Below are positions 3,995 through 50,200 of a DNA stretch of 64,000 bases, piece by piece (position 1 is the stretch's first letter; every line of letters begins with the position of its first letter). A program made the translations under genes and the position numbers. The notes under the pieces were generated by a model. The model had not been told where the DNA came from. It searched no databases and saw only the letters and a program-made list of their open reading frames with translations. The DNA is from Corallococcus silvisoli (GTDB taxonomy: Bacteria > Myxococcota > Myxococcia > Myxococcales > Myxococcaceae), in assembly GCF_009909145.1 (NCBI RefSeq), contig NZ_JAAAPJ010000005.1:336470-400469 (forward strand), given 5' to 3'.

Positions 3995-4867
3995 TCACTG
4001 GCACCTGCCGAAGCTGCACGTGAGCGGGAAGCCACACGTATTGCCGCAGCAGGGCCCGTTCCGGTAGCCGCAGGACTCGCAGCGGTTCGACACACCACAC
4101 CCACCCTGCACGCAGTAGGCCCCCGAGCAGCAGGTTTCACCGATGTGGCCGCAGAACAGCTGACAGGTCCCACCGCTGCACGTGAGGACCCCTGAGCAGA
4201 CCTGCCCCGGGCAGCACGTCTCGCCGTTGTAACCACAATGGGCCTGACCGCAGCCGAACAGCTCCAGCTTCCCCATGGAGACGACGACGATGCCCGCCGC
4301 CGGATCATTGTCATCCGTGATGTTCAGCCGGTACTTCAGGTAGCTTCCCGGGGACCCCACCGTATAGGTGCGGGTCTGCAGCCCGGGCCAGCCGGTCTCT
4401 CCCGAGCGCGTGTCCACCACCACCCAACCGCTGCCATTCCACCCCTCCAGCGTCCAGGCGCTGGGCGCGCGACTGGTCAGCGAGCCGTTGGCGAACGTGA
4501 TGGCGTAGCTGGTGACGAGCCGGGGCGTGAAGTCCGTCCACTCGTAGGCGATCCACGCCGGCGTTTGATAGACGGCGGAGATCCACATGCTCGTGTTGGA
4601 GCTGTCGAAGGCCTGCCAGGCCTCATACGAGGAGTCATAGGCGCCTGACCGGGTGACACTGCCGCTGGGGGCCGTCGCGCTGGTCATCGCTGGCACCAGG
4701 CTGACGGTCGTCGAACAGCTCAGCGCGGCCTCGCTCGTGGCCAGTTCGGGTATCGCCGCGGCGCTCTCCTCTAGCGGCGCTCCAGGCGAATCGGTATTTC
4801 CACAGCCAAGGGCGAACAGTGAAAGCAAGGCACTTCCCAGGACGACGATACGGCCAGGATTTCTCAT
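3995..4867 (-). CDS. Secreted lipoprotein with an F5/8 type C (discoidin)-like domain and a C-terminal Cys-rich repeat region
   Basis: LFALGCG lipobox. WQAFDSSNTSMWISA...PAWIAYEW...GWNGSGWVVV resembles the discoidin fold. The C-terminal ~90 aa contain ~28 Cys in repeated G-E-T-C-C modules. Confidence 0.6.
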   Translation of the reverse strand: MRNPGRIVVLGSALLSLFALGCGNTDSPGAPLEESAAAIPELATSEAALSCSTTVSLVPAMTSATAPSGSVTRSGAYDSSYEAWQAFDSSNTSMWISAVYQTPAWIAYEWTDFTPRLVTSYAITFANGSLTSRAPSAWTLEGWNGSGWVVVDTRSGETGWPGLQTRTYTVGSPGSYLKYRLNITDDNDPAAGIVVVSMGKLELFGCGQAHCGYNGETCCPGQVCSGVLTCSGGTCQLFCGHIGETCCSGAYCVQGGCGVSNRCESCGYRNGPCCGNTCGFPLTCSFGRCQ

Positions 4868-5318: not shown

Positions 5319-6671
5319 ATGAAAACCTGGATTCGCTTCCTGGGGAGTCGCGCCACTCAACTCCGGCAGACGGTGCTGGGAGCCCTCCAAGGCTCGGGCC
5401 TCGAGATGGTGTCGCGCCCGGAGGAAGCTCCCCCTGGCCTCGGAGTGATTGTCTTCGATGAAGTGGAAGCGAACACGCTGGAAGCCGTGCGGGACTGCCG
5501 GCTGAGCCCTTCGACACGGGTCCTCGCGGTGGCCACGACGGGCCAGGGACTCGGTGAAGGGGCTTGCTGGCGGCTGCTTCAGGCGGGAGCCTCGGACGTG
5601 CTCGTCTGGGAGGGCGCGCGTGACGCGGCGGCGGAGATCGCCGCACGGCTGGAGCGCTGGCACCAGGTGGAGCGGCTCATCGAGTCGCCCGCCGTGCAAC
5701 GGCGCCTGGTGGGCCGGGCCGCCACCTGGCTCCCGGTGCTGCGCCAGCTCGTGGAGGTGGCCGCGTTCACTGACGCCTCGGTGCTGCTGCTCGGGGAGAG
5801 CGGCACCGGCAAGGAGGAGATGGCCTGTCTCATCCACGAGCTGGACATGCGCCCGGACAAGCGGGAGCTGGTGACGCTGGACTGTACGACGGTGGTGCCG
5901 GAGCTGTCGGGCAGCGAGTTCTTCGGGCATGAGCGGGGCGCCTTCACGGGAGCGACGAACACCCGAGACGGGGCCTTCGCCCTGGCCCATGGCGGGACGC
6001 TGTTCCTGGACGAGGTGGGCGAGCTGCCCCTGGCCCTCCAGGCTCAGTTGCTGCGGGTGGTGCAGGAGCGTCTGTACAAGCGCGTGGGCTCCAACACCTG
6101 GCAGCGGACGGACTTCCGGCTCGTCTGCGCCACCAACCGCGAGCTGTCCCAGCAGGTCGCCCAGGGCGGCTTCCGCCGCGACTTCTTCCACCGCATCCTG
6201 AGCTGGGTGTGCCGGCTCCCGCCCCTGCGCGAGCGACCCGAGGACATCCTCCCGCTGGCCCAGCACTTCCTCCGGTCGATGCGACCCGACATGGCGCTCG
6301 AGCTGGATCCCCACGTGCGGGAGTACCTCCTCAAGCGCAGCTACCCGGGAAACATCCGGGAGCTGCGTCAGCTCATCGGGCGCCTCTGCAAGCGGCACGT
6401 GGGCACCGGGCCCATCACCGTGGGCGACATTCCCCCCGACGAGCTCCCTTCCTCCGAAGGGCTCGGGGACTGGCAGGACGTCTCGTTCGCGCAGGCCATC
6501 CAGCGCGCCCTGTCGCTCGGGGTGGGGCTCAAGGAGATTGGCCGGAGCGCCTCGGACACGGCCATCCGGCTGGCCCTCGCCGAGGAGCAGGGCAACCTCC
6601 AACGCGCCGCCCGGCGGCTGGGCGTCACGGACCGCGCGCTCCAGCTCCGCCGGGCCCAGCGCGACGAATAG
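5319..6671 (+). CDS. Sigma-54-dependent Fis-family transcriptional regulator (NtrC-like) with a degenerate receiver-like N-terminus
   Basis: Walker A GESGTGKE, the GAFTGA signature (GHERGAFTGA), Walker B LFLDEVGEL, an Arg-finger region and a C-terminal Fis-type helix-turn-helix (NLQRAARRLGVTDRALQLR). ATG at 5319 (MKTWIRF) chosen; the ORF-track start at 5211 has no support. Confidence 0.85.
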   Translation: MKTWIRFLGSRATQLRQTVLGALQGSGLEMVSRPEEAPPGLGVIVFDEVEANTLEAVRDCRLSPSTRVLAVATTGQGLGEGACWRLLQAGASDVLVWEGARDAAAEIAARLERWHQVERLIESPAVQRRLVGRAATWLPVLRQLVEVAAFTDASVLLLGESGTGKEEMACLIHELDMRPDKRELVTLDCTTVVPELSGSEFFGHERGAFTGATNTRDGAFALAHGGTLFLDEVGELPLALQAQLLRVVQERLYKRVGSNTWQRTDFRLVCATNRELSQQVAQGGFRRDFFHRILSWVCRLPPLRERPEDILPLAQHFLRSMRPDMALELDPHVREYLLKRSYPGNIRELRQLIGRLCKRHVGTGPITVGDIPPDELPSSEGLGDWQDVSFAQAIQRALSLGVGLKEIGRSASDTAIRLALAEEQGNLQRAARRLGVTDRALQLRRAQRDE

Positions 6672-6685
6672 CCGGAGTCATCGCC

Positions 6686-7522
6686 TCAGCATCCGCCGCC
6701 TCGGAGCGCATCGGGGGTCCAGGGGTCTCGCGGCTCTTCCTCCACCGAGGGGGCCGGGCCCTTCCAGGCAGACCTCCGCCCCAAGGGCCTTGGGCGGCAC
6801 CGGCCCATCAATCGCAGCAGGTTGCCCCCCAACACGAGCTGCCGGTCCTTCGGAGACAGCTCCAGCGCGAGCACCTTGGCCAGCTCCACCCCCGGGTGCA
6901 GCCACGGGCCATCCGAGCCGAAGAGCAGCTTGTGTGCCCCGGCCCGCTCCACCGCCTCCTCCAGCAGGTCGAAGCGGCGCACCCCAGCGGTGTCGGCGTG
7001 GACGTTGGGCAGGCGCGCCAGGAGGTCCAACAGCGCGCGCTGCGCTCGCCAGTCGTCCGCGAAGCTGCCCAGGTGCGGGATGATGAAGCTCACCTCCGGG
7101 TACTCGGTGGCGATCAACTCCACACCGGAGACTTCTCCCATCACGTCGTAGAGGATGGGCAGCGCGAAGGCCCGGGCCACCTCGCAGATCTCACGGGAGA
7201 TGCGCGCGTCGTAGCGGTGGACCTTGATGCCCCGGAAGCCGTAGCGCCGCACGGCCTCCTGGACCCGCTCGAAGACGCGCCCGCGGTCTCTCACGGCATG
7301 CACGAAGGCGAAGCCGTAGAAGCGCTCCGGGTGGCGTTTCACGAGGCGGGCCACCTGGCGATTCGCCGTGGCGTAGTCGGAGTGGAACGCGGCCAGCAGC
7401 ACCGTGCGGGAGATGCCCGCGGCGGACGCGCGCCGCAGGTAGTCCTCCAGCGGCGCGGAGGTGTCCCAGGGGCCGGTGAGCCCGTCGCCCTTCCCGGCAT
7501 GGCAATGGCAGTCGATGATCAT
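6686..7522 (-). CDS. Amidohydrolase-2-type metal-dependent TIM-barrel hydrolase; last gene of the six-gene operon
   Basis: Starts MIIDCHCHAG (the IDxHxH metal-binding motif), with later His/Asp ligands (IIPHLG, FGSDGPW). Lies 7 nt downstream of the GIY-YIG gene stop. The ORF-track extension to 7657 is rejected. Confidence 0.7.
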   Translation of the reverse strand: MIIDCHCHAGKGDGLTGPWDTSAPLEDYLRRASAAGISRTVLLAAFHSDYATANRQVARLVKRHPERFYGFAFVHAVRDRGRVFERVQEAVRRYGFRGIKVHRYDARISREICEVARAFALPILYDVMGEVSGVELIATEYPEVSFIIPHLGSFADDWRAQRALLDLLARLPNVHADTAGVRRFDLLEEAVERAGAHKLLFGSDGPWLHPGVELAKVLALELSPKDRQLVLGGNLLRLMGRCRPRPLGRRSAWKGPAPSVEEEPRDPWTPDALRGGGC

Positions 7523-7529
7523 CGTCGCG

Positions 7530-8516
7530 TCATCGGCGCTCGAACAGCTCGTAGAGCGCCTTGTCGGGGAGCGAGAGCGCGCGGTTGGCGATGCCAGGCG
7601 CCTTGGCGGCCCGGACGCCCCATGGATTCGGCGGGAGCAAGCCCTGGATGGAGACACCTCCTCTCACGCGGAACTGCCGGATGGAGCTCAGGTTGCGAAG
7701 GCGGCCCGCGGGGACGGCTCCAGAGAGCAGGAGCGCGCGGATCAGCGCATGCTCCACCGCCCTGCGAGCCTGTCGGGTGTTGGGCTGAATCGTCCCGAAC
7801 CAGACCGTGATGGGCTTGGGCAGCAGCCCCCCCTTCTGGGTGAGCCCCATCTGGTAGAGGCTCAGCAGGCGTCCTCGCCAGCGCCCCTGGAAGCTGTCCG
7901 TCTCGCCCACGTAGAGGGGAAGCCCCTCCTCCTCCACGACGTACAAGCCACCTCCGGCGGGAAGCGCGGAGAACGGGTGGCGATCAATCTTCCGCACCGA
8001 CCAGGAGAGGACCTTCGCGGTGACGGGGCCCCGCTGTGCCTCGAGCTCCTGCGACTCCGCGGGAGGGGGCCCGTCCTGCCCGGGCGGAGCGTCCGAGGGT
8101 TCCTCGGGAGGCGCCACATCCGGCGGCGGCTGCGCCGCGGCCACCGGCTCGACGCTGTCGGGAGGGGGCTCGTTCAGGGCCGGCTGGTAGAGCGGGTAGC
8201 CGTACGGCCCTCCGCCGTAGACCACCCAGGGGCGGCCCCTCGGCCACCGCCGCCCCGGCCTCGGCCCCTGCCCCTGCCCCTGCCCCTGCCCGGGGCTCCG
8301 CCACGCACGGGCCGGTCTCGAACCCGAACGCCAGACCTGCGCCCGGGGGACGCCCATCATCCCGCGTCCGACCCCGAACCGCCTCGCGCCGGGCTGGAGT
8401 GCACGAGCGCGGCGCGCAGGTGGCGCACGGAAGGACCGCGCGAAGTGGCCCTCCTCTTCGCCTTCCCACTCGGACTCCAACGCGTCTTCGCTCTCGTTCT
8501 CGTACCACTCATTCAT
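7530..8516 (-). CDS. GIY-YIG nuclease-motif protein with a long acidic/Arg-Gly-Pro-rich disordered N-terminal region
   Basis: GLYVVEEEGLPLYVGETDSFQGRWRGRL...RRAVEHALI resembles I-TevI GVYQIK..KVYVGSAKDFEKRWKRH and the Arg/Glu-His of GIY-YIG. Its ATG overlaps the upstream gene's stop (ATGAATGA). Confidence 0.6.
   Translation of the reverse strand: MNEWYENESEDALESEWEGEEEGHFARSFRAPPARRARALQPGARRFGVGRGMMGVPRAQVWRSGSRPARAWRSPGQGQGQGQGPRPGRRWPRGRPWVVYGGGPYGYPLYQPALNEPPPDSVEPVAAAQPPPDVAPPEEPSDAPPGQDGPPPAESQELEAQRGPVTAKVLSWSVRKIDRHPFSALPAGGGLYVVEEEGLPLYVGETDSFQGRWRGRLLSLYQMGLTQKGGLLPKPITVWFGTIQPNTRQARRAVEHALIRALLLSGAVPAGRLRNLSSIRQFRVRGGVSIQGLLPPNPWGVRAAKAPGIANRALSLPDKALYELFERR
8265..8291. repeat. 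(CCCCTG)4 hexanucleotide microsatellite encoding GQGQGQGQG in the GIY-YIG protein's disordered region
   Basis: Direct reading of 8265-8291. Confidence 0.8.
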
Positions 8517-9594
8517 GACGTGTCCTCCGCTGCTGCCTTCCGTCGACGGCTTCCACCAGCGCCTCCACTGCGTGAGTCAGCTCCTCCGCGCCGTGCCGCG
8601 CGGTGAGGATGAAGCTCACCGACACCTCCGGACCGCAGCGCGAGCGCTGGAGCACGGTCCGGATGCCACGCCGGTGCAGCCGCTCGTGGACCGCTCGCGG
8701 GTTCACCCCGCGAGGAAGCTGGATCCGCTGCACCGGGAACCGCCCGCCCACCGAGGCCAACCCCGACCGCCGCAGCCGCCCCCGGAAGTGCGCCACCCGC
8801 AGCGCCAGCGCCTCCCGGAGCGCGTCGCCTTTCCGGCGATTGATGGCCACCGCGTGCTCGGCGGCATGGAGATCCGCCACCGAAGGTGGACTGCAATGCA
8901 TCCGCGTCTCGCTGCGCTCCTCGTACCTGGCCACCACCCGCGCGCCGCCGGCCATCAGCGCCATCGGCACACCCAAGGCCTTCGCCATCGAGCCGCACCA
9001 CAGGACATCTGGCCCGTGGATGCCGTACCAGCGCAGCGAACCCCCTCCGCCGGCTCCGTATGGCAGGCCGGGCCCCGGCATGCCGAACACTCCCAAGGCT
9101 TGGGTGTCGTCCAGGATGAGCAGGCCCCCATGGGCCCGGACCACCTCCAGGTACGCGTCGAGCGGCGCCAGCGCGCCGCAGCCCGGACACCAACCGTCGC
9201 AGACCACCACCGGCCGGAGCCCCTGGCGCGGCGCCCGTGCCAGGAGCCTCGCCAGGGCCTCGGGCGAATGATGGGGAAAGCTCCTCACGGGTCCGCCGCG
9301 CGCCACCACCCGCTCGAACCCCCACCGCACCACCGGGTAGCTGCCTTCATCCCAGTAGAGGGCCACGGGGCGCCCCGCGAGCGCTCCGAACACGTCCCAG
9401 AACAGGTGCAGCGTGGAGCGGGCGAACAGCCCCCGCTCGCAGCCCACCAGCTCCGCCAGGGCGCGTGACGTCTCTTGCGTTCCGGGGGGCTCCTCGAGGA
9501 TGGCCGGAGTGCCCAGGGTGAGCCGCTCCCACGGCGCGAGCGATCCGCTGGAGTGCTCCAGGCCCAGGTAGAGCGCGGAGGTGAAGTCGAGCAC
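8509..9594 (-). CDS. PLP-dependent aminotransferase class I/II fold enzyme, alpha-oxoamine synthase family (AONS/KBL/SPT-like), N-terminally short
   Basis: LDFTSALYLGL (AONS LDFxSNDYLGL), DDTQALGVFG (DExHxxG) and the PLP-lysine motif GSMAKALG. At 361 aa it is shorter than typical AONS and lacks the first ~40 residues. Confidence 0.75.
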   Translation of the reverse strand: MLDFTSALYLGLEHSSGSLAPWERLTLGTPAILEEPPGTQETSRALAELVGCERGLFARSTLHLFWDVFGALAGRPVALYWDEGSYPVVRWGFERVVARGGPVRSFPHHSPEALARLLARAPRQGLRPVVVCDGWCPGCGALAPLDAYLEVVRAHGGLLILDDTQALGVFGMPGPGLPYGAGGGGSLRWYGIHGPDVLWCGSMAKALGVPMALMAGGARVVARYEERSETRMHCSPPSVADLHAAEHAVAINRRKGDALREALALRVAHFRGRLRRSGLASVGGRFPVQRIQLPRGVNPRAVHERLHRRGIRTVLQRSRCGPEVSVSFILTARHGAEELTHAVEALVEAVDGRQQRRTRHE

Positions 9595-9609: not shown

Positions 9610-11466
9610 TCACCGCCTCCGCTGCAGGGCCAGCCGGTTGCGCAGGTGCACCGAGGGGGACACGTAGCGCTCCGCCAGGCGCTGCTGGTCGGTGATGTCG
9701 ACCGCGAGGTCCACGCCGGTGACGGCCCGGTACGCGTGGATGTAGCCCTGGATCTCCGGCCGCCAGTAGCGCGCCCAGTTGGCGGCCTGGTTCGGGTCGT
9801 TCGTGATGCTCCACGCGCCGTAGCGCACGGCCAGGAGCACCTGCTCGCCGTAGACGGCGAGGTCGTGGAAGTGCACCACGCTGACGTCCGTCCACCCCAG
9901 GAGCGACTTCATCGCATCCACCCGGTCCATCCACGGCTCCGGGTAGGGCACCATCACCCGCCCGCCGAGGAACTCGCGCATCTCCGGGCGCGACAGCAGC
10001 CACTGCTGCATCAGCATCTCCTGGCGCGCGGTGGAGGGCATGTCTCCGAACTGGTTATGGGCCCCCTGCGCCAGCAGGTAGTGCGTCTCCTTGAGCGAGT
10101 TGAGCACCGGGAAGCCGTCCGACACCACGGTGGTGTCATCGTCCTGCCGGAAGAACTGCACGCATTGGTGGAGCAGGTTGTGGAAGGACTCGAGGAACTT
10201 CGAGCGCCGATCCGCGGTGCGCATCCCGGACACGGCCTTGCCGTGCAGCGTGAAGCCATATTCGTGGTCGTACTCGTGGGCGCGGCGCACGACGCTCAGC
10301 CGGTGCTGCTCGTCCTGGAGGTAGCCCCACAACACGTTGTTGAGGGGCCGCAGCGGATCGATCTCCATGTTCGCCAGCGGATCCCGGTCCCCGGGCCCGC
10401 GCACGTTCTGGAAGCGATTGCTGATGTAGTTCATCGCCTGGACCAGCATTCCCTCCTCGTGCCAGTAGTTCCAGATGAGCTCCAGGAAGGTGGGGTAGCC
10501 CAGCTTCTGCTGGAGGATGCCGTAGCAAGCGGCGTAGTCGTCCTCCGGAATGTTCCGAGGCGCGATGACCGGCACGTCGGGGAGCTTGTTGCGGATGATC
10601 GCCAGGTAGGGGAGCGCGACATCGGCGCTTCCGTTCACATCCTCCAGGTAGTGCTTCCACACGACCTCGAAGTCGAAATCGCGAGGAAGCGTCTGGCCGA
10701 GGCGACCGCCCTCCACGCGCGCGTCCAGCTTGTCCAGCAGCTCCGTGAAGTCCACCAGCACGCCCGTGCGCTCCAGCATGAAGGCCTCGGTCAGGGCCTT
10801 CAGCTTCCGGTAGGCATCCACGCCAGGGAATGGCAGCCGGAGCTTGGGCTTGCGGATCGGGGTCGGCCTGCCCGGGCCCGGCAGGCCCGTGCCCGGGTCC
10901 GTCATGTGGTCGGGCGGGCAGAGGTGTGCGTCGATGAACCGGCTGTATTGATCGAAGGAGAGCCAATCGGTGGTCTTGCGGATGACCATCCAGAGGATGA
11001 CGTCGGTCGTCAGCGGATGAAGGGTGCGCTGCAGCGCCACGGGGAGGACAGGCATGCGTCCAGCCGCGCCGAAGGAGTTGAGCTCGTTGAGCGCTTCGCG
11101 CACCACCTCCCGGACGTTCCTGTCGCCCTCTCCCGGGAGGAGGGTCAGCGACTGTTCGGCTTCCCAGGTGAACGCGGGCCTGGTGGAGCCCGCCCCTTCG
11201 AACTCCTCGAGGATGACCTTGGCCTTGAGGACGCCCGCGCGCCTCGAGCTGGGAATCGTCCAGGTCGCGTGGCCATTGAGCTCCTGCCTGTCCGCGCTGG
11301 ACTTGGAGACCGGGGGTTCGACGCTGCCGGCCTCCACGGACCATCTGTAGACCCGATGCGTGAGCTTCGGGTTCACGTGGACGGGGGACGCCGACAGTTC
11401 GACGGTGGCACCCGAAGCGCTCGAGGTGACGGTGGTGGGTGAGAGAGTGAGTGTGACGCCAGCCAT
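9610..11466 (-). CDS. Hypothetical protein (618 aa), no recognisable domain; possible N-terminal beta-sandwich
   Basis: Long ORF with GC3-rich codon usage. Strong Shine-Dalgarno GGAGG 8 nt upstream of ATG at 11466. A TTG at 11481 sits 2 nt after the upstream stop. Confidence 0.6.
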   Translation of the reverse strand: MAGVTLTLSPTTVTSSASGATVELSASPVHVNPKLTHRVYRWSVEAGSVEPPVSKSSADRQELNGHATWTIPSSRRAGVLKAKVILEEFEGAGSTRPAFTWEAEQSLTLLPGEGDRNVREVVREALNELNSFGAAGRMPVLPVALQRTLHPLTTDVILWMVIRKTTDWLSFDQYSRFIDAHLCPPDHMTDPGTGLPGPGRPTPIRKPKLRLPFPGVDAYRKLKALTEAFMLERTGVLVDFTELLDKLDARVEGGRLGQTLPRDFDFEVVWKHYLEDVNGSADVALPYLAIIRNKLPDVPVIAPRNIPEDDYAACYGILQQKLGYPTFLELIWNYWHEEGMLVQAMNYISNRFQNVRGPGDRDPLANMEIDPLRPLNNVLWGYLQDEQHRLSVVRRAHEYDHEYGFTLHGKAVSGMRTADRRSKFLESFHNLLHQCVQFFRQDDDTTVVSDGFPVLNSLKETHYLLAQGAHNQFGDMPSTARQEMLMQQWLLSRPEMREFLGGRVMVPYPEPWMDRVDAMKSLLGWTDVSVVHFHDLAVYGEQVLLAVRYGAWSITNDPNQAANWARYWRPEIQGYIHAYRAVTGVDLAVDITDQQRLAERYVSPSVHLRNRLALQRRR

Positions 11467-11483
11467 GATTCCATCCTCCAACG

Positions 11484-12827
11484 CTAGGTGACGACGTTCC
11501 GCGGCAACGCGGGAGCCCGGAGCACCGACGCCAGGGTCCGCGACTTCGAGAGTGACGCGCAGGTCTCGGACGCATCGAGCGTGCTGCGCAGGGCCCAGTA
11601 CTTGAGGAGCTCGGCCAGGGCCTTGCTCTCCTCCTCGGGAGTGATGGCCCCGTCGGCCCTGGCCTGCCCGATGACGGCGAACACCAGCGAGGGCGGCGAC
11701 TCACGAATGCGGGAGCGCCGGGCGCGCCACTCCCGGTACAGCTCGGAGAGCCGGTCTGGCTGACGCTCCCGCGTCTTCATGACCTCCACCAGCGTGCGTC
11801 CACGAAGGGACTCCGGCCGGTGCTCCACCAGGAGCCGCGCGATGCGCGGCAGGCTCGCCTCGAGCGCGCCGAGCACCCGGCGGTGCTGCTCGGACAGTCC
11901 GTCGATGGGGTAGAACGCCTTCCACAGTCGCGCCAGCCGCGCCCACTGCGGATGCGGATACAGCAGTCCGCCCAGCGCGCTGCTCAGCTTGACGCGGATC
12001 CACGGGATGGGATGGGGGTCGTCCATGTTCAGCCGGAACACGAACGGCCGCGGCAGGCTCACCACCCCCATCAGCCCCACCGTGGCGGTCACCCCCACGC
12101 GAGCCACCGACCAGAAATCCGCGACGACCTCCGAGATCCACCGCTCCCACAGGCCCCAGACCAGCGCGTCCTCGGGCCCTTCACGCGGCACGTCGCGCAG
12201 GGCCACGCGGAGCGAGGCCACCAGGTCCAGCAGCGCCGCCCCCTGGTGCCCCACCTCGTGGAAGAGGGAGGACGCGAGGCTGCTGCCGATCATCCGCTCG
12301 CGGGGGACGCGGATGATGGCCACCGGGTTCGCCCCGCCGCCGGGCAGACGCGTGCGCGCCCGGCGGATGGCCGCTCCGGGGCCGCGAGCCAGGTAGCAGA
12401 TGACGGGCGGCGCCTCGTAGTACCCCGGCAGCTCCAGCGCGTTCTTGGAGAGCACGTCCAGCCCCGCCAGCCAGACGCCGTTGTCCGCCTCGCTGCGCTG
12501 GCTCATGGCCTCGCTGAAGATGTCGAACTGCGACAGCACCACGTTGAAGCGCAGCCGCAGGAAGGTGAAGCGCCGCTGCGCCTCGGCGGGGGCCGCGTGT
12601 CGGCCCCAGGGGCCCTCCAACCACGCGAGGTACTGGTGGATCTGCGTCCGTAGCTCACGGCGCCCCTTGACCAGGTAGCTCTCCAACGCCGCCTGCGCTT
12701 CGACGGAGAGCGTGGCCGCTGGGACCATCGTCTCCGACATGGCGAAGGACTTGATGCGCTCGAGCCGGGTGAGCAGCGCGCGGGCCTCCTGTGACAGCAT
12801 CCAGGAGGCGAAGGAGCCGGAGGACAT
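11484..12827 (-). CDS. Hypothetical protein (447 aa) with an HExxH zinc-metallopeptidase-like motif (SLFHEVGHQ)
   Basis: Long ORF, typical codon usage, with HEVGH in a hydrophobic context. No signal peptide; family not recognised. Confidence 0.6.
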   Translation of the reverse strand: MSSGSFASWMLSQEARALLTRLERIKSFAMSETMVPAATLSVEAQAALESYLVKGRRELRTQIHQYLAWLEGPWGRHAAPAEAQRRFTFLRLRFNVVLSQFDIFSEAMSQRSEADNGVWLAGLDVLSKNALELPGYYEAPPVICYLARGPGAAIRRARTRLPGGGANPVAIIRVPRERMIGSSLASSLFHEVGHQGAALLDLVASLRVALRDVPREGPEDALVWGLWERWISEVVADFWSVARVGVTATVGLMGVVSLPRPFVFRLNMDDPHPIPWIRVKLSSALGGLLYPHPQWARLARLWKAFYPIDGLSEQHRRVLGALEASLPRIARLLVEHRPESLRGRTLVEVMKTRERQPDRLSELYREWRARRSRIRESPPSLVFAVIGQARADGAITPEEESKALAELLKYWALRSTLDASETCASLSKSRTLASVLRAPALPRNVVT

Positions 12828-12833
12828 GGTGGC

Positions 12834-13463
12834 TCAGACCCCGTAGAGGATGATCTTGTTGCCCTTGCGCACCCAGCGGCCACTGCGGCCACCGGTGCCC
12901 GCGGCGTGCGGCATCTGGGCGGCGAAGCCAGGGGCGAACTTCTGGATGGCCTGGTGGACGGCGGCGCCAGCCACCTGCTGGGGCGAAGCATTGTCGGGCG
13001 AGTTGAGGGCCGTCTTGGAGGCGTCCGAGGCGAGTCGGACAATCTGCCGGGCCACCTCGAACTCGCGGTCCTCCTGGCTCAGGCCCTCCAGTTCGAGCCC
13101 GAACGCCTGGCCCGCCATGGAGGCCAGCTTGCCACCGACGGCGCCGCCCACGCCGGGGACCACGAGGTTGCCGAGCGCGCTGCCCACCATCGGCAGGGCC
13201 TGCCTGGCCAGTCCCTTGAGCATGCCCCCGAGCTGCTTGCCCAGCGGAGACTTCACGACCTTGCCGACGGCGCTGCCCACCTTCTTGATGATGTTGCCGA
13301 GGAACTGATCCAGCTCCTGCTCGTTGCTGACCTCCAGCAGCTCCGAGGCGAGCTCGTTCAGCTCGTTCTCGTTGAAGACCTCGCCCCACTCCGACTCGGC
13401 GTTGAACTCGAACTCGAACGACTCCCCCTCCAGTTCCTGGTAGGTGCGATCCACGTCATGCAT
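12834..13463 (-). CDS. Hypothetical small protein (209 aa): acidic N-terminus, Gly/Lys-rich amphipathic central segment, basic C-terminus; first gene of the operon
   Basis: ATG at 13463 (MHDVD) preceded by GAGGAA. The ORF-track extension to 13712 is rejected. Low-complexity composition is visible directly in the sequence. Confidence 0.55.
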   Translation of the reverse strand: MHDVDRTYQELEGESFEFEFNAESEWGEVFNENELNELASELLEVSNEQELDQFLGNIIKKVGSAVGKVVKSPLGKQLGGMLKGLARQALPMVGSALGNLVVPGVGGAVGGKLASMAGQAFGLELEGLSQEDREFEVARQIVRLASDASKTALNSPDNASPQQVAGAAVHQAIQKFAPGFAAQMPHAAGTGGRSGRWVRKGNKIILYGV

Positions 13464-13520
13464 GGTCAGTTCCTCGTGTGATGGGGCCGGCTTCGTGGCC
13501 GCGGGTTCGGACCGGGCATA

Positions 13521-13536
13521 AGCAGCGGCTGTGCCA
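13521..13536 (-). promoter_or_regulatory. Candidate sigma-54 (-24/-12) promoter TGGCAC-agccg-CTGCT upstream of the six-gene operon
   Basis: Reverse complement of 13521-13536 reads TGGCACagccgCTGCT. GG and GC are separated by the canonical 10 nt. It lies ~58-73 nt upstream of the ATG at 13463. Confidence 0.4.
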
Positions 13537-13766
13537 ACCCCGCCGAGGGTCGCTCCTGCTCTGGGAGTCAGGGCGCGGGAGCGAAGCGCGCTTCGGCGGC
13601 GCCGGCCGAACGGGAGATTCGGCGAAGCAGGCTTCGGCGCCCCGTCATGGCCCCGTGGGCTCCGGGCGAGTCCCCCCCCTGGCGAGGGCATTCGTCCCCT
13701 CGCCGTCGCCATTCGCGGGGCCGTCGGCTAGCGTTCGGCCCTCTCCGCGGAACAAGAGGGGGGCCC

Positions 13767-16040
13767 ATGCGCGTCGTACCGTCCATCCTGGAATCCGTCA
13801 CCGTTCACGCCGAAGGCGCGCTGTGCACCCGCGCGCTCGTGCTCTCCCCCGAGGACGGGCACCTGCCCGAACAGGTCCGCGTCGACGGCCTGCCCCTGGC
13901 CCTGCGAACAGCGACCCTGCGCGCCCGCGTGGTGGAGGGCCCCACCGGGCTCCTCGTCCGCGACCTGCGGCCCACGTTCGACGTGCGGCTGCCCGCCGAA
14001 TCGGACCTGCCCGCGGAGCTGCACGCGGCCGAAGCGGCGGAGGCCGCGCTGTCGGACGTGCTGGGCCGGCTGGAGCGGGTGCGCGCGGAGCTGGAGACCC
14101 TTCAGGGACTGGCGCCCTCCTTCCCGCCCCAGCGCAAGGGCCAGCTCCCGCGCGAGGCGCCCCTCGCCGCGATGCTGGCGCTGACGGGCTTCGTGGACGC
14201 GGAGCTGACGGCGCTGCATGCCCAGCGGCTGGAGCTGGAGCGGCAGTACCGCGACGCCACCCAAGAGCTGGAGCTGCGCCGCCGCCGCGTCCAGGAGCTG
14301 TCCTCCGCGCGAAGCGTGGACCGGGCCCGGCTCTTCCGCGCGGCCCTCCTCACGCTGTCCGGCCCCATCGCCGCGAACGCGGAGGCGCGCCTGGTGTTGG
14401 AGTACGCCGTGGCGGGCGCGCGATGGGTGCCCACCTACGACCTGCGCCTGCCGCGCACGCTGGAGGAAGGCACGCTGCGCATGCGTGCCGCCGTCATCCA
14501 GCGGACCGGCGAGGACTGGAAGGGGGTCCGGCTGTCGGTCTCCACCGCGAGCCTGGAGCGGCGCGCGGTGGTGCCGGAGCTGAAGTCGCTGCGCATCGGC
14601 CGCAGCCAGCCGGCGCCCGTGCGCTCGGGATGGCGTGAGCCCGCGCCGGGCCTGGACGAGCTGTTCGCGGGCTACGACGCCATGACGGTGCCGCCCCCTC
14701 TCGCGATGCCCGAGCCTCTTCCGCCCCCTCCGATGGACGAGCTGGACGCGGATGAGGACTCGTTCGGGAGCGTGGTGGCCTTCGAGGAGTCCTTGAAGGA
14801 GAAGTCGCCGAAGGCGATGTCGTCCTCGTATGGGGGCGCGCCGGGCGCTCCGCCCATGGCGCCCCCTTCCGTCTCCCGGCCCGCGCCGCCGCCCATGCCG
14901 GCTCCCAAGGCCGCGGCCCCCGCGCTGGGCGGAGTCCGCCCGTCGGCGGCCCCGAGCCGGAACCTCAGCGACGGCGGAGACCTCAGCCGGAGTTTCCGGC
15001 GGGATGCCCCGGGCCGGGGCGGCGGCGGGATGAGCAAGAAGCGCGCGGCCGAGGAGGAGAGCCTCGATGATGCCCCGATGATGGACCTGTCATCGGACCT
15101 CTCGGACGGCGAGGGCGGCGGCGGGGAGTCGCGGCGCACGAGGGCCCTGGAGCCCGCGGACAGCCTGTTCGACTACGACTCGCTGACGCTGGCCCCTCCG
15201 GGCGCTCCAGCCGAGCGCGGCCGGCTGACGCCCCGGCCGGCGCTCATCACGCAGGCGAGGCTGTCCGTCACTTCCGTGAGTCTCCAGGTCGAAGTGGTGC
15301 GCCTGGAGGCCCAGGCCTTCGTCACCGCCGAGTCCGTGAACACCGTGCCGCCGCCCACGTGGGCGGTGGCGCCGCGCGACTCCGCCCGGCACTTCGACGC
15401 GCGCTTCGACGCGGAGGCGGTCGCGGACGTGCCCGCCGACGGCGCGTGGCACACGGTGCCCATGCTGACGGTGCCCCTGGAGTTCCGCGCCGAATACGTC
15501 TGCGTGCCTTCGGTGGAGCCGCGGGTCTTCCGCACGGTGCGCCTGGACAATCGGACACCGCACCCGCTGCTCGCGGGGCCCGTGGACGTGACGCTCGGGG
15601 ATGAGTTCCTGATGACCTCTCCGCTGCCCACGCTCGGGCCCGGCGAGACGCAGCGGCTGGGATTGGGCGTGGAGGAAGCGATCCAGGTGGCGCGCAACAC
15701 GCGCTTCGAGGAAGCGACGGGCGGCATGTTCGGCAACAACACCGTCCTCACGCACCACGTCTCCGTGGAGGTGACCAACCACCTCGCGCGTCCCGCGACG
15801 CTCGCCATCTCCGAGCGCATCGGCGCGGTGCCCGAGTCCCAGAAGGACCTCAAGGTCGAGGAGGCGGAGGTCATCCCGCCCTGGCAGAAGCCCACGCCCC
15901 TGCCCGGAGAGGTCGCGGTGGAGGGCGAGCGGGTCTGGCGCATGAGCATGCCCGCCGGAGAGAAGCGTTCGATGAAGGCGACATGGGTCGTGAAGCTGCC
16001 CGGCAACAAGATGCTGTACGGCGGGAACCGGAGGACATGA
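13767..16040 (+). CDS. DUF4139/MuiA-like (myxobacterial paralogous family) protein with a Pro/Ala-rich central linker
   Basis: Long ORF with ATG at 13767 (MRVVPSILESVTV). Shares architecture and short motifs (WVPTYDLRLP compared with AWRPAYRAAL) with the next gene. Family assigned from memory only. Confidence 0.6.
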   Translation: MRVVPSILESVTVHAEGALCTRALVLSPEDGHLPEQVRVDGLPLALRTATLRARVVEGPTGLLVRDLRPTFDVRLPAESDLPAELHAAEAAEAALSDVLGRLERVRAELETLQGLAPSFPPQRKGQLPREAPLAAMLALTGFVDAELTALHAQRLELERQYRDATQELELRRRRVQELSSARSVDRARLFRAALLTLSGPIAANAEARLVLEYAVAGARWVPTYDLRLPRTLEEGTLRMRAAVIQRTGEDWKGVRLSVSTASLERRAVVPELKSLRIGRSQPAPVRSGWREPAPGLDELFAGYDAMTVPPPLAMPEPLPPPPMDELDADEDSFGSVVAFEESLKEKSPKAMSSSYGGAPGAPPMAPPSVSRPAPPPMPAPKAAAPALGGVRPSAAPSRNLSDGGDLSRSFRRDAPGRGGGGMSKKRAAEEESLDDAPMMDLSSDLSDGEGGGGESRRTRALEPADSLFDYDSLTLAPPGAPAERGRLTPRPALITQARLSVTSVSLQVEVVRLEAQAFVTAESVNTVPPPTWAVAPRDSARHFDARFDAEAVADVPADGAWHTVPMLTVPLEFRAEYVCVPSVEPRVFRTVRLDNRTPHPLLAGPVDVTLGDEFLMTSPLPTLGPGETQRLGLGVEEAIQVARNTRFEEATGGMFGNNTVLTHHVSVEVTNHLARPATLAISERIGAVPESQKDLKVEEAEVIPPWQKPTPLPGEVAVEGERVWRMSMPAGEKRSMKATWVVKLPGNKMLYGGNRRT

Positions 16041-17599
16041 TGCGCACTTCCATTCTGTTGCCCCTGGTCAAGGTGACGGTCCTGGAGGACCGGGCCCTCA
16101 TCGAGCGCACCGGCGAGGTGACGCTGCCTCCGGGCCCGTGCCGCCTCGCGGTGGACGGCCTGCCGGCGGTGGCCGTGGACCGCTCGCTTCAAGCGAAGCT
16201 CTCAGGTGGCGTGGTGACCCAGGCCAGCCTGCGCCGCTCGATGCGCGCGGTGCTCCCGGAGGCCCTGCGCGAACACGCCACGGAGCTGGCCCGCCGCGCC
16301 TTCGAGCGCGAGCAGGAGCTGGAGCGCGCGCAGGCGGAGGTCGGTCGCCTGGAGACGCGGCGCGACCTGCTGGAGGCCGCGCGGACCGAGGTCTTCCGCG
16401 CCATCAGCGAGCGCACCGGCGCGGGCGAGGCGGATCCGACGCGCTGGAAGGAACAGCTCGAAACGCTGCGCAAGGAGCAGGCCGCGACGGACGACACGCT
16501 CTGGCAGGCCCGGCGCTCCGCGGCGCGCCTCCAACGCCAGCATGAGCAGGAGACCCGCGAGGTGCTGGCGCGCACGGCTCCCGCCGAGCCCACGGTGGAC
16601 GTGCGCGCGGAGCTGGACGTGAGCCACGCGACGGGCGGGCCGGTGACGTTGACGCTGACGTACCTGGTGCCCTGCGCCGCATGGCGGCCCGCGTATCGCG
16701 CGGCCCTGAGCCTCGCGGACGAGGGCTCGACGGTGGCGTTGGAGTGCGAGGCCGTCGTCTGGCAGAACACGGGCGAGGCCTGGAAGGACGTGACGCTGGC
16801 CTTCTCCACGGCGCGCCCCACGCTGGGTGCCACGCCCCCCAGGCTCGAGGAGGACTGGCTGTCCCTGCGGGACAAGACAGCGCGAGAGAAGCAGGTGGTG
16901 GAGGTCTCCGTCCGCGAGGAGTCCATCCAGACGACCGGCGAGGCCGGGACCTCGAAGGCCGCGGATGCGCTGCCCGGCATGGACGACGGCGGAGCGCCGG
17001 TGACGCTGTCCACGCCCCACAAGGTCACGGTGCCGTCGGACGGCGAGGCGCACCGCGTGGCGCTGTTCGCGTTCACGGCGCCCGCGACGTCGGAGCTGGT
17101 GGCCTGCCCGGAGCAGTCGCCGCTGGTGCACCGGGTGGCGCGGTTCGCCAACACGGGGCCGACGGTGCTGATGGCCGGGCCGGTGGACCTGGTGCGCTCG
17201 AAGGGCTACGTGGGCCGCGCGCAGCTCAAGTTCGCGGGCCGGGGCGAGCGCGTGAAGCTGGGCTTCGGCAGCGAGGACTCGCTGCGCGTGTCACGGCAGG
17301 CGGAGTCGAGCGAGGAGGTCGCGCGCATCACCAGCCGGCGCACGAACACGGAGCGGGTGAAGCTGTTCGTCTCCAACATGGGGGCGATGCCGGCGAACCT
17401 GGTGGTGGAGGAGCGCATGCCGGTGTCCGAGGTGGAGGCCGTGGAGGTGGCGCTGCTCAAGGACGCCACGAAGCCCGCGCCCACGAAGGTGAGCGACGAC
17501 GGCATCGTGCGCTTCGAGTTGAACGTCCCGCCGCGCTCCCGGCAGACGGTGTCCTTCGGCTTCACGGTGGCCCGCTCCGGGAAGGTCTCGGGCCTGTAG
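16037..17599 (+). CDS. DUF4139/MuiA-like paralog, translationally coupled to the upstream gene (ATGA overlap)
   Basis: ATG at 16037 overlaps TGA at 16038-16040. Coiled-coil N-terminal half and beta-rich C-terminal half parallel the upstream paralog. Confidence 0.6.
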   Translation: MMRTSILLPLVKVTVLEDRALIERTGEVTLPPGPCRLAVDGLPAVAVDRSLQAKLSGGVVTQASLRRSMRAVLPEALREHATELARRAFEREQELERAQAEVGRLETRRDLLEAARTEVFRAISERTGAGEADPTRWKEQLETLRKEQAATDDTLWQARRSAARLQRQHEQETREVLARTAPAEPTVDVRAELDVSHATGGPVTLTLTYLVPCAAWRPAYRAALSLADEGSTVALECEAVVWQNTGEAWKDVTLAFSTARPTLGATPPRLEEDWLSLRDKTAREKQVVEVSVREESIQTTGEAGTSKAADALPGMDDGGAPVTLSTPHKVTVPSDGEAHRVALFAFTAPATSELVACPEQSPLVHRVARFANTGPTVLMAGPVDLVRSKGYVGRAQLKFAGRGERVKLGFGSEDSLRVSRQAESSEEVARITSRRTNTERVKLFVSNMGAMPANLVVEERMPVSEVEAVEVALLKDATKPAPTKVSDDGIVRFELNVPPRSRQTVSFGFTVARSGKVSGL

Positions 17600-46337: not shown

Positions 46338-47145
46338 GCCGGGACGGCAGGCGCACGTCCCACGCCAGCCCCACGGCCTGGAGCGCGCGGATGAAGAGCC
46401 AGCCTGGATCCCACTGCCACCACACCCAGCCATGCCGCGCGGACGCGGGGAAGGCGTGGTGGTTGTTGTGCCAGCCCTCGCCCAGCGCGAGGACGCTCAC
46501 CCACCACACGTTCCGGCTCTGGTCGCGCGTGTCGTGGACGCGCGAGCCGAACGCGGCGTGGCACACGGAGTTCACCGCGTAGGTGCTCTGCATCCAGCAC
46601 ACCACCGGCAGGAAGAAGTACGCGGGCACCGCGCGCCAGCCGAACGTCAGCCCCACCGCGAGCACCGCCAGCACCTGCGGCGCGATCCGGTAGCGCAGGA
46701 GCCAGTGGTAGTAGCCGTCCTGCGCCATGTCGCGGCACCAGGTGCGCCAGCCGTCCTCCTCCGTGGAGGCCTCGTTGAGGATCCACCCCATGTGCGCGTA
46801 CCAGAAGCCGCGCACGGGCGAATGCACGTCGCCCTCCATGTCCGCCTTCGCGTGATGCAGCCGGTGGTTGGCGGCCCACAGCAGCGGGCTGCCCTGGGCC
46901 GTCAGCATGGCCACCGTCACCAGCGCGTACTCCACCCAGCGGGGGCAGGCGAAGGCCCGGTGGCAGAGGAGCCGGTGCAGCCCCACCGTGGTGCCCAGCC
47001 CGATGGACACGTACACCCCCAGCGCCACCGGCAGCGCGTACGGAGGCCACGGGAGGAAGAAGGCCAGCGCGGCCAGCGCATGCACCACGAGCATGTAGCC
47101 GACGATGACGGGACTGAACCGGAAGCGGAGCGGAGCGGTGGTCAT
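46315..47145 (-). CDS. Acyl-CoA (stearoyl-CoA delta-9-like) desaturase
   Basis: HRLLCHRAF, HRLHH and HNNHH histidine boxes with 4 transmembrane helices. ATG at 47145. The ORF-track extension to 49815 is an artefact running across the neighbouring gene. Confidence 0.8.
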   Translation of the reverse strand: MTTAPLRFRFSPVIVGYMLVVHALAALAFFLPWPPYALPVALGVYVSIGLGTTVGLHRLLCHRAFACPRWVEYALVTVAMLTAQGSPLLWAANHRLHHAKADMEGDVHSPVRGFWYAHMGWILNEASTEEDGWRTWCRDMAQDGYYHWLLRYRIAPQVLAVLAVGLTFGWRAVPAYFFLPVVCWMQSTYAVNSVCHAAFGSRVHDTRDQSRNVWWVSVLALGEGWHNNHHAFPASARHGWVWWQWDPGWLFIRALQAVGLAWDVRLPSRLRSEAGA

Positions 47146-47216: not shown

Positions 47217-50200
47217 TCACCCCCCCCGCGCGGCGCGGAGCGGCGGGAGCGCCGCGGTGCCGGGCAGCAGGGCCTGCATCGCGGCCTGGAAGCGGTCCAT
47301 GCGGCGCAGCTCCGCGTGGGCCTCCACCTGCGTGAAGATGGCCCGGGCGCGGGCCAGGAACGCGTCCCGCCGGTGCGGCAGCGCCACCGCCGCGTCGAAG
47401 TAGGCCACGCCCGTCTCCCAGCGGTTGGGGCTCTTCTCCAGGACGGCGATGGCCTCCAGGAACACCGGCTCCGCGGCCCTCGGGCCCTTGCGCAGGGCCA
47501 GGGCGCGCGCCGTCACGCGCAGCGCCGGGCCCTTGAGGTACGGGTACAGCCGGGCGATCACGCGCGCCTTGAGGCAGGCCAGCCGCACGATGCGCAGCAG
47601 CTTCTTGCGCGACACCACCGTGGCGCCCTCCTCCAGCGCGAAGAGGGCCGCCTCCGCCGCGTCCACCAGCCCCACCTGGAGGAAGGGCACCAGCACCTGG
47701 TAGCTCCAGATGCTCTTGAAGCAGCGCACCGCGACGAGCGCCGCCTCCTCCACCTGGTGCTCGCGCACGGTGACGTTGGCCAGGTGGTTGAGGCTCGCGC
47801 ACTGGTTGGCCAGGTCCGCCACCTCCATGCTGATGCGCAGGCCCTGCTCCATCTCCGCGCACAGCTCGCCGACGTCGCCTTCGCCCAGCAGGTAGCGGCA
47901 CATGGGCGCCCACGAGTGCGCCCAGCCCTGGTGCATCAGCGCGTTGAGCTCCAGGCCAATGGTCCCCATCTGCTCGTAGAGCGACTCCGCCGTCCGGAAG
48001 CGCGAGTGGAGGAACTCCCCTGTCGCCTGCATCATCAGGGACGTCTGGCGCTCCCAGCGCTCGCCCACCTGGCGCAGCGTGGAGACGGCCTCCTCCTGGA
48101 ACTCCCGCGCGCGCTCCAGCTCGTTGGCGAAGAAGGCCTGGATGCCCAGGCGGCTGAGCGCGAGCCCCTCCGCCACGGGGTCGCGGGAGCGCAGTGCGTA
48201 GGTGAGCGCCCGCTCGCAGTGCAGCCGCGCGCGCTTGAGCAACCCCGCGCCGAACAGCAGCGTGCCGTAATAGCCGCTGGCGAGGCTCATGGCGTAGTCG
48301 CTGCGCGAGCGCTCCGCCATGTTGGTGGACACCAGCGTCGCCCAGGTGAGCTTGGTGATGTCCGCGAAGTAGTAGATGCGGATGAGCGAGTTGAGCGTGG
48401 ACAGCTGCTGGAGGTAGTTGCCCAGCCGCGACGCGGGCAGCGGCCGCAGCACGAACGGCATCAGCGTGGCCAGCCCCCGGAGGAGCAGGTTGCCCAGCGT
48501 CCGCGCGCCCAGCGCGGCCAGGTTCCCGGGGAGGCTGCGGCCTCGGAGGACCAGCGACTGCTCCAGGTGCTGCGTGGCCAGCGCGGACTCGCCCTTCTCC
48601 TGGTGCGCGCGGCCCAGGCCCAGGTGCAGCTCCGCCTGCTGCGGCACCTCCTCCTCGTCCACCAGGCACTGCTCGAACATCAGGATGGCGTTGGCGTAGT
48701 GGCCCGCCTGGAGCAGCGTCTCCGCCAGCTCCTGCATCACCCGGCGCGTCTTCAGCAGCATCGCCTCCGGGTCCACCGGCACGACGGTGCCCAGGAGCTC
48801 CAACCCCCGGTTGTAGTGGTAGAGGGCGTCGTCGTTGGCGTACTGCGCCCGCGCGCTGCGGGCCGCCATCAGCGTGTACTCCAGGCCCTTGTCCTCCACG
48901 TTGCCCGCGAGGAAGTGGAACGCGAGCAGACCCGCGGAGCCCGCGAGGTTGTCGCTCGCGCGGGCCTCCAGGTAGCGCGCGAGCCGGCGGTGCAGGTCCT
49001 CGCGCGCCGACACCAGCAGCGTGTTGTAGGCCACGTCGCGGATGACGATGTGCTTGAAGAGGCAGGTGTAGGGCTCCTCCGCCTCCAGGAGGGTGAGGCC
49101 CAGGCGCCGGAGCGTGTCCATGGCCTCGCGGAGCCTCGGGCCGGCCAGGGAGGGCACCAGCGCCGCCACCGCGTCCAGCGTGAAGATGCGCCCGATGACG
49201 GACGCCACCTTCACCACCAGCTTCTCCGTCTCGCTCAGCAGGTCGATGCGCGACAGCACCACGTCCTGGATGGAGTCCGGGAGCAGCAGGTCCTGCAGGC
49301 CGCGCTTCACCTCCATCCGCGACGCGCCGGGCTCCACCGGTCCCAGGTAGCCCTGCTCCGCCAGGCCCTCCACGATGGACTCGATGAAGAACGGGTTGCC
49401 CTGCACCTTCGCGAGCAGCCGCTCCTCCAGCGCCACGTCCGGCGGCGACAAGCGCAGGTGCACGCGCAGGAGCGCTCGCGTGTCCTCGTCGTCCAGGCTG
49501 CTCAGGTCCACCGGACAGTACTCGGGCGTGTCGCGCAGCCCCTTGAGCTGGTCGCCCGGGCGCATCGTCGCCAGCACCATGATGCGGTGCGACCCCACGC
49601 GCGCCGCGAGGTGCTGGAGCAGGTCCAACGAGATGTAGTCCGCCCAGTGCAGGTCCTCGAAGAAGAGCAGCAGCGGCTGCGCGTGGCTGAGCTTCTCCAG
49701 GAGCTGGAAGACGATCTGGAACACCTTCTGCTGCTTGCGCCTCGCGTCCATCCCCGCCGTGACGGACGTCTCCTCCAGGGACATGCCCAGGATGCCCGCG
49801 ACCACGGGCATCCACTCCGGCCCCACGTCCTCCAGGCCGTCCAGCCCCTGCCGCAGGCGCGTCAGCTGCGCCTCCGTGTCATCCGAGTCGTGCAGCCCGA
49901 AGGCCTGGAGCAGCACTTCCTTCCAGGGGAAGAAGGGGGTGAACATCTCGTAGGAGTAGCAGACGCCGTACAGCGCCCGCGCGCCGCCCTCCTCCGCGTC
50001 CTCCAGGACGCGCGCGCCCAGCCGTGACTTGCCGATGCCGGCCTCGCCGGACACCACGCACACGCGGCCCTGGCCGGTGAACGACGCGTTCAGCGCCTCA
50101 TGCAGCACGTTCAGCTCACGGCTGCGGCCGATGATGTCGCCCCGGCCCTTGATGAAGAGGCCGCGGCGCGTCTCCCCCAGCAGCCGGTACACCGGCACCG

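Follow-up and report, generated by a model that had tools for sequence, protein, structure and literature searches.

Which kind of promoter drives a tightly packed six-gene operon in Corallococcus silvisoli, and what switches it on? The operon lies on the minus strand (13463-6686) of a 64,000-nucleotide stretch of contig NZ_JAAAPJ010000005.1 (assembly GCF_009909145.1, positions 336,470 to 400,469), referred to here as the window, and an earlier reading of these letters, the original prediction, had pointed to a -24/-12 element of the sigma-54 type in front of its first gene. Our analysis suggests that this element is very probably a functional enhancer-dependent sigma-54 promoter, activated by the GAFTGA protein encoded next to the operon via two upstream palindromes. 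The kind of promoter is classical, textbook sigma-54 biology; the palindrome pair is newly recognised here as a set of predicted upstream activator sites.

A probable sigma-54 core element precedes the operon

The elements between the core and the first start codon are the following.

13521-13536, minus strand: predicted sigma-54 core promoter TGGCAC-agccg-CTGCT, the rank-one match of two scoring matrices, conserved
13510, minus strand: predicted transcription start (+1), to within 1-2 nt, from the fixed -24/-12 geometry
13471-13475, minus strand: Shine-Dalgarno sequence GAGGA, 7 nt ahead of the gene 1 ATG, with AGGAG kept in relatives

The reverse complement of 13521-13536 reads TGGCACAGCCGCTGCT and has a further T in front (gTTGGCAC), its minus-strand context being ggggT TGGCAC agccg CTGCT tatgcc. 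Its two dinucleotides, GG at 13535/13534 (-25/-24) and GC at 13523/13522 (-13/-12), have the GG-N10-GC spacing of one helical turn (TGGCACagccgCTGCT), and 10 of the 12 specified positions agree with the extended sigma-54 consensus TGGCACG-N4-TTGC(T/A) quoted in PMC9765219. The C of CTGCT, where the consensus has T, is normal for this clade, since the characterised M. xanthus sigma-54 promoters nla28, mrpB and MXAN5040 carry CTGCT at -12 (PMC9765219, Table 1). The exact pattern TGGCAC-N6-TGC occurs once in the 64-kb window. The element is intergenic and co-oriented with the operon, 58-73 nt upstream of the ATG at 13463, which opens the reading frame at an MHD start kept in orthologues. The start of transcription would thus lie near 13510, with a predicted 5' untranslated region of 47 nt; an Rfam search of the whole window at gathering cut-offs matched no RNA family, and the untranslated region therefore holds no known leader or riboswitch.

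The original prediction had given this motif with its position, the canonical spacing of the GG and GC dinucleotides, the distance to the first ATG and a six-gene operon behind it. Motif and coordinates proved exact, the spacing is as described (G 13534 at -24, C 13522 at -12), and the same distance was measured. The operon, too, was recovered as six co-oriented open reading frames (ORFs) separated by gaps of at most 17 nt or slightly overlapping, and neither a terminator scan nor a scan with an E. coli-type sigma-70 consensus detected such sites between them. A scan of the intergenic region found no sigma-70-like promoter either, with an E. coli-type consensus that may miss myxobacterial promoters or those of the extracytoplasmic function (ECF) type.

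The core stands out from its background

In a genome of 70% GC the element could be a chance match, the operon being transcribed from an unrecognised sigma-70 or ECF-type promoter. Two observations lend themselves to this explanation. Sites with at most one mismatch to TGGCACN5TTGCW occur once in the window against 1.88 expected from dinucleotide shuffles, a count that is not significant by itself and was therefore not relied on, and the sigma-70 consensus used could overlook a myxobacterial promoter.

Scoring with position weight matrices (PWMs) gave a different picture from motif counting. An approximate matrix of the published sigma-54 consensus (PWM 1) ranks the core first of 127,970 window positions with 15.9 bits. 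A second matrix (PWM 2), built from 19 intergenic Salmonella sigma-54 sites supported by chromatin immunoprecipitation (ChIP; PMC3844500, Table 3), again ranks it first, with 16.8 bits where the 19 Salmonella sites range from 14.1 to 20.5, and the core leads the next best window match (13.4 bits) by 3.5 bits. First-order Markov simulations of the window yield an expected 0.145 sites per 64 kb at the core's PWM 2 score or better, such that the element singled out by the original prediction tops the window against background under both matrices.

We also asked how the element fares in other genomes. Using alignment of the gene 3 protein as bait, we fetched 80 loci with 10-kb flanks (~21 kb each) from Myxococcota, Acidobacteriota, Betaproteobacteria (Massilia, Janthinobacterium, Variovorax), Chloroflexota, Verrucomicrobiota, Nitrospirota, Methylomirabilota, Rokubacteria and others. 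According to tblastn, the order of genes 1-2-3-4, followed by a variable stretch and gene 6, is conserved in these loci, and extra paralogues of gene 1 are frequent. When both strands of each locus were ranked by PWM, the locus-wide best sigma-54 match of 46 of the 68 evaluable loci, against 1.04 expected, was on the operon strand and no more than 300 nt ahead of a gene-1-like gene, and the upstream match was among the top three of the locus in 59 of the 68. For several of the exceptions, the top match lay in this intergenic region too, on the other strand. Among close relatives, an alignment of C. silvisoli, C. carmarthensis, Myxococcus sp. and Archangium reveals an intergenic region that has diverged outside sharp islands, which are TGGCAC, CTGC, the Shine-Dalgarno sequence, the start codon and two palindromes, with the core conserved in 4/4 of these Myxococcaceae/Archangiaceae relatives.

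Set against chance, then, are the first rank that both matrices give the core among some 128,000 positions, its correct strand and distance, its retention while the flanks diverge, its recurrence in 46-59 of 68 loci ahead of this operon, and the phased, conserved palindrome pair that flanks it. Position, orientation and cross-phylum conservation together place the core far beyond chance, and we regard a fortuitous match as very unlikely.

A phased pair of palindromes lies upstream of the core

Two perfect palindromes are found upstream of the core, at a distance typical of enhancer sites. The original prediction does not mention them, although no other feature of the window is as strong.

13582-13595, no strand assigned: proximal palindrome CGAAGC-GC-GCTTCG, centred at -78.5, invariant in relatives; predicted activator site
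13623-13636, no strand assigned: distal palindrome CGAAGC-AG-GCTTCG (plus-strand reading), centred at -119.5; predicted activator site

They share the consensus CGAAGC-N2-GCTTCG and stand 41 bp apart, or about four helical turns, which places both on nearly the same helical face. The pattern CGAA-N6-TTCG occurs in the 64 kb only in these two palindromes, and the 12-base palindrome pattern, allowing at most one mismatch, was observed 4 times against 0.37 expected, a number reached in none of 100 shuffles.

The same arrangement was surveyed in the 57 loci that have the core motif, within the region from -140 to -30 counted from the T of TGGCAC. In 84% (48/57) of the loci this region holds one or more exact CGAA-N6-TTCG sites and in 43 of the 57 two or more, and the density of such sites was 14.4 per kb in this region compared with 0.082 per kb elsewhere in the loci, a 176-fold difference. 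The palindrome pairs (exact in 43/57 loci, with at most one mismatch in 45/57) are always spaced by 41-42 bp. Their offsets from the core fall into discrete classes, -100/-58, -88/-46 and a few at -111/-70 or -119/-78, which differ by ~11-12 bp, one helical turn, so the helical face is preserved. Conserved spacing together with helical phasing to the core is what an activator looping to the polymerase requires, and the palindromes are thus predicted to be bound by the activator as enhancer sites.

Several loci, at least those labelled L011, L019 and L020, have a single palindrome pair between two divergent sigma-54 cores (L004 6620-7463; L011 7579-7697; L019 6975-7117; L020 7269-7418; L024 7100-7243; L068 2332-2505). 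One enhancer pair appears to serve two divergent promoters in these cases, a compact arrangement that is relevant to regulon prediction.

The intergenic position of the core also bears on a further explanation, in which the sigma-54 holoenzyme binds here mainly at a regulatory or roadblock site, for instance one that modulates the divergent DUF4139 gene. Many sigma-54 sites found by ChIP in Salmonella are indeed no obvious promoters (PMC3844500). Here, by contrast, an intergenic, co-oriented core, with its predicted start 47 nt upstream of a tightly packed operon, is accompanied by a good Shine-Dalgarno sequence and by enhancer sites at the classical distance, while the divergent gene begins on the other strand at a distance of 230 nt, and no divergent -24/-12 motif is present in the window. 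A primarily regulatory binding site is on these grounds a poor account of the locus, and one to which we give very little credence.

The neighbouring gene encodes the candidate activator

A sigma-54 promoter of this kind calls for an enhancer-binding protein, and a candidate is encoded at the far end of the operon.

5319-6671, plus strand: predicted cognate enhancer-binding protein, with a ~130-aa N-terminal domain, an AAA+ domain containing GAFTGA and a putative C-terminal Fis-type helix-turn-helix (HTH)

Its AAA+ domain matches PF00158 (Sigma54_activat) with 180.8 bits where the cut-off is 20.2 (E 2.2e-53), and an AAA lid domain was matched as well. The C-terminal HTH_8 match (E 9.7e-4) scores 19.3 bits, under the 22-bit cut-off. 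In an alignment of 49 orthologues GAFTGA is near-invariant, and the AAA+ core, GAFTGA and the C-terminal HTH (AARRLGVTDRALQLRR) are strongly conserved; conservation of the HTH fits a conserved DNA target. Of the loci, 56 extend for 8 kb or more beyond gene 3 on its downstream side; an activator orthologue was detected in 53 of these, in 50 of them downstream and convergent, and the orthologues are 50-85% identical over their full length. In one locus where the activator is apparently missing (L046), a fragment lies at the extreme end of the fetched stretch. Two loci (L008 and L055, the latter from a Trueperaceae metagenome-assembled genome) have genes 1-4 and lack both the activator and a sigma-54 motif upstream of gene 1, where their best scores are 5.9 and 4.6 bits. 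These two loci serve as natural controls: that the motif is missing where the activator is missing argues for the activator being cognate. They also suggest that the cassette can be rewired to a promoter of another kind.

The core might nevertheless be real and be driven by some other enhancer-binding protein, the palindromes being bound by another factor such as a repressor. About 53 sigma-54 activators have been reported for M. xanthus (PMC3162934), which makes cross-activation conceivable; binding of the neighbouring activator to the palindromes is a prediction from sequence, and its HTH_8 match is below threshold. Against this, activator, palindrome pair and core co-occur across phyla with very different activator repertoires, few stretches of the activator are as well conserved as the HTH, and loci without the activator are also without the promoter. 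Moreover, the positions at -79 and -120 and their helical phasing are of the enhancer type, unlike those of an operator that overlaps the core. We consider control by a different activator improbable, and retain the protein encoded at 5319-6671 as the likely cognate activator.

The N-terminal domain is where the signal would be expected to act, and here the 130 residues are poorly conserved among orthologues. A Pfam search with 24 orthologous N-terminal domains recognised no domain, neither Response_reg nor GAF, and none of the 24 matched a CARF-containing (RtcR-type) model. The strand pattern and an LLxAGAxDVLxW motif align in register with CheY (GVIVFD with GFVISD, AGASDVLVW with AGASGYVVKP), at sub-threshold scores: comparison with CheY by hhalign gives E 0.012 and a probability of 3.5%, and profile matches to CheY and other response regulators in the PDB have E-values of 0.1-0.3. 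Among the orthologues the position equivalent to Asp57 is taken variously by D, E, G, N, Q, R or T, strand 1 is not followed by the acidic pair, and a conserved Trp replaces the receiver Lys. A receiver was rejected on the strength of the missing Response_reg matches and the loss of phospho-pocket residues, and a CARF domain on that of the missing matches to CARF-containing models; the domain may be a pseudo-receiver at best. No histidine kinase gene was found in the cluster. Since the conserved residues of a phosphorylatable receiver are missing, control of the activator by a ligand or a partner protein seems more likely than control by a histidine kinase.

The original prediction had named this gene as the only GAFTGA activator in the window, convergent with the last gene of the operon, and had tied the operon to signal-dependent sigma-54 control. 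A search of all six reading frames bore out the first point, ERGAFTGA from nt 5937 being the sole GAFTGA, and the second is evident from the two stop codons, which lie 14 nt apart with the genes converging. The third stands as far as sigma-54 control is concerned, as the core and its linkage to the activator are conserved (46/68 and 53/56 loci); its signal-dependent part needs qualifying, the N-terminal domain being no recognisable phospho-receiver.

A model for activation of the operon

Combined, these observations suggest a model in which RNA polymerase carrying sigma-54 would bind the core at 13521-13536 on the minus strand and wait there as a closed complex. Dimers of the activator would bind both CGAAGC-N2-GCTTCG palindromes, at about -79 and -120, through the C-terminal HTH, form an AAA+ ring and meet the polymerase by looping the short intervening DNA. 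The GAFTGA loop would then touch sigma-54, and ATP would be used to open the promoter, such that the six-gene operon 13463-6686 is transcribed from ~13510. The ~130-aa N-terminal domain most probably gates the activator.

Several points weigh against this model. The evidence consists of sequence, statistics and conservation, and from it we infer the start site, the binding of the activator to the palindromes, the requirement for rpoN and the kind of signal that acts. The rpoN gene is not within the 64-kb window, and we assume its presence in the C. silvisoli genome from what is known of Myxococcota. Motif counting within the single window is not significant on its own; PWM 1 approximates the published consensus, a weakness mitigated by the second, literature-derived matrix; and the simple sigma-70 scan leaves myxobacterial and ECF-type promoters uncovered. 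The HTH_8 match of the activator is sub-threshold (19.3 against 22 bits). The loci are phylogenetically non-independent, many of them being from Janthinobacterium and Massilia, and some (among them those from Chloroflexota and L014) have the core without a pair of exact palindromes. Finally, no IHF-like site lies between enhancer and core in the window; such a site is present in just 3 of 58 promoters and therefore falls outside the conserved design.

Relation to known sigma-54 systems

The closest parallels are found among well-described activators, each of which resembles the system in some respects and departs from it in others. Activation by DNA looping, as by NtrC-type proteins, is a general mechanism (PMC7057263). 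The NtrC/glnAp2 pair has the same design of a -24/-12 core with two same-face dyad activator sites upstream, and NtrC likewise has GAFTGA in a central AAA+ domain, followed by a C-terminal HTH of the Fis type, which in the window activator is putative. In contrast, the N-terminal domain of the window activator has no recognisable receiver, the cluster has no histidine kinase gene, and the activator scores 226.7 with the NCBIfam ntrC model, where the cut-off is 558.6. The site CGAA-N6-TTCG also seems unlike that of NtrC.

PspF and its target pspA share with the present locus a dedicated activator adjoining a single target operon, and two upstream sites within ~130 bp of the start. PspF, however, lacks an N-terminal regulatory domain (PMC7057263), whereas the window activator has one of ~130 aa; the latter scores 230.6 with TIGR02974, below the cut-off of 443.55, and the operon proteins are unrelated to PspA. 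By analogy, one could speculate that the first product of the operon, small and abundant-looking, feeds back on the activator.

RtcR, which controls rtcBA, is also a sigma-54 activator of a single operon, and no other NCBIfam or PADLOC model matches the AAA+ and HTH part of the window activator better. Its defining CARF domain nonetheless falls outside the match (model positions 1-166 are unmatched), and the score of 263.7 is below the cut-off of 650. NorR differs as well: described in PMC2941729 as having an N-terminal GAF domain, it matches residues 154-482 only (NF003451, 261.5 against a cut-off of 476), and Pfam finds no GAF domain in the N-terminal part of the window activator.

Within the same clade, the Nla28 promoters of M. 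xanthus have the same TGG..-N..-CTGCT flavour of core and tandem upstream half-sites (PMC9765219). Their half-site is CT(C/G)CG(C/G)AG and many of their cores are intragenic, unlike the intergenic core and the 14-bp palindromes of different sequence found here, and Nla28 is a kinase-partnered response regulator.

The operon encodes a widespread, undescribed cassette

The six genes placed under this promoter are as follows.

12834-13463, minus strand: gene 1, 209 aa, with an acidic leader at the N terminus, a hydrophobic middle rich in glycine and a GRWVRKGNKIILYGV motif at the C terminus
11484-12827, minus strand: gene 2, 447 aa, without a family match; its HExGH motif, of HExxH type, is conserved
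9610-11466, minus strand: gene 3, an Ig-plus-helical protein, very conserved
8509-9594, minus strand: gene 4, a BioF/Kbl-like enzyme (Aminotran_1_2) dependent on pyridoxal phosphate (PLP), with the putative PLP lysine conserved
7530-8516, minus strand: gene 5, 328 aa, with an acidic leader and a weak GIY-YIG-like stretch
6686-7522, minus strand: gene 6, Amidohydro_2, with conserved HxH and Asp

Searches of Pfam and NCBIfam returned no families for genes 1, 2 and 3 and a weak GIY-YIG hint for gene 5, PADLOC matched none of the six operon proteins, and sequence searches of the PDB gave no matches. Full-text literature searches found no description of the cluster, just general sigma-54 references. 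The 1,760 homologues of gene 1 are annotated as hypothetical without exception, and share a leader (ELxxELLEVxxExELDxFLG), a block GLELEG..ED.EFEVAR and a C-terminal GRWVRKG..I.L. Gene 3 has more than 3,500 homologues, 50-60% identical, across phyla; its helical core had no fold match, and a first AlphaFold model built from 14 sequences (pLDDT, the predicted local distance difference test, of 50) was unusable. Gene 5 is restricted to the closest relatives.

Four proteins make up the core of the cassette: the HExxH protein, the Ig-plus-helical protein, the BioF-like PLP enzyme and the amidohydrolase. Around this core, proteins under the same control share an acidic leader (MHDxxRTYQExEGE / ELLEVxxxQELDxFL) and a GRWVRxGxxIxLxG motif; they include genes 1 (12834-13463) and 5 (7530-8516) of the window and divergent ORFs of L001, L003, L004, L005, L011, L020 and L037. 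The divergent sigma-54 promoters of other loci precede proteins with the same leader or RWVRxG motif. The bodies joined to the leader signature are glycine-zipper-like, of KP-repeat type, PG-binding plus enzyme-like or, in gene 5 of the window, weakly GIY-YIG-like, and from these features the leader-sharing proteins resemble a family of cargo or effector proteins. As judged by its sequences, the cassette looks like an enzyme core plus a variable set of leader-bearing proteins.

The variable segment between genes 4 and 6 (L045 12629-16487; L007 12540-16033) encodes, in other phyla, a PG_binding_1 protein, an M20 peptidase, a weak, sub-threshold beta-lactamase-like protein (in L045) and a weak HNH-like protein (in L007). 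The PG_binding_1, M20 peptidase and beta-lactamase-like proteins hint at a link to the cell wall or to peptides.

Promoter, phased CGAA-N6-TTCG pair and activator may accordingly form the conserved switch of a widespread, undescribed cassette, found in at least eight phyla, that would represent either a new sigma-54-controlled system in which proteins with the leader, of glycine-zipper type or directed to the cell wall are made, matured or delivered, or a new response to envelope stress, a proposal that we rate about equally likely to be right or wrong. Three protein families encoded here have thousands of members but lack relatives in Pfam, NCBIfam and the PDB, and the interest of the locus lies in a clean control module that spans phyla, in an activator family and site consensus that can now be defined, and in a widespread uncharacterised cassette. 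A sigma-54 promoter stays silent as long as its activator is missing, and it can be forced on by an activator stripped of the regulatory domain; the function of the cassette therefore becomes directly testable once its switch is known. If the proposal holds, the activator without its N-terminal domain would be a ready genetic handle for turning the cassette on. For hundreds of bacteria from soil and freshwater, the activator family, its site consensus (two CGAA-N6-TTCG sites, 41-42 bp apart and phased) and its regulon can now be predicted from sequence.

Neighbouring genes and minor observations

Two homologues of gene 3, P0012 from Aggregicoccus (748 aa) and P0054 from Pendulispora, are longer than gene 3 and annotated as '8-amino-7-oxononanoate synthase', an annotation that may stem from a fusion to the adjacent BioF-like gene 4 or from a name wrongly carried over from it.

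The second- and third-best PWM matches of the window, at 46559 and 49717 on the plus strand, have no palindrome pair and fall within a long opposite-strand ORF (47217-51509 and neighbours). Further matches at 4839 and 6939 on the minus strand lie within coding sequence. As sigma-54 promoters all four were judged chance matches from their location inside ORFs or coding sequence. The match at 4839-4824 (TGGGAAGTGCCTTGCT), a moderate one and probably a product of chance, sits just within the 5' end of a lipoprotein-like ORF adjoining the activator (3995-4867, minus strand), which has a signal peptide, a lipobox-like Cys and C-terminal Cys-rich repeats, and to which Pfam gave no match.

On the other side of the promoter region, a gene for a DUF4139/DUF4140 protein (13767-16040, plus strand) reads divergently from the operon. 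The PWM scan of the window found no divergent -24/-12 motif ahead of it, and a divergent sigma-54 promoter for this gene was rejected, no such core having been found. It is followed by a second ORF of 538 aa on the same strand (15983-17599).

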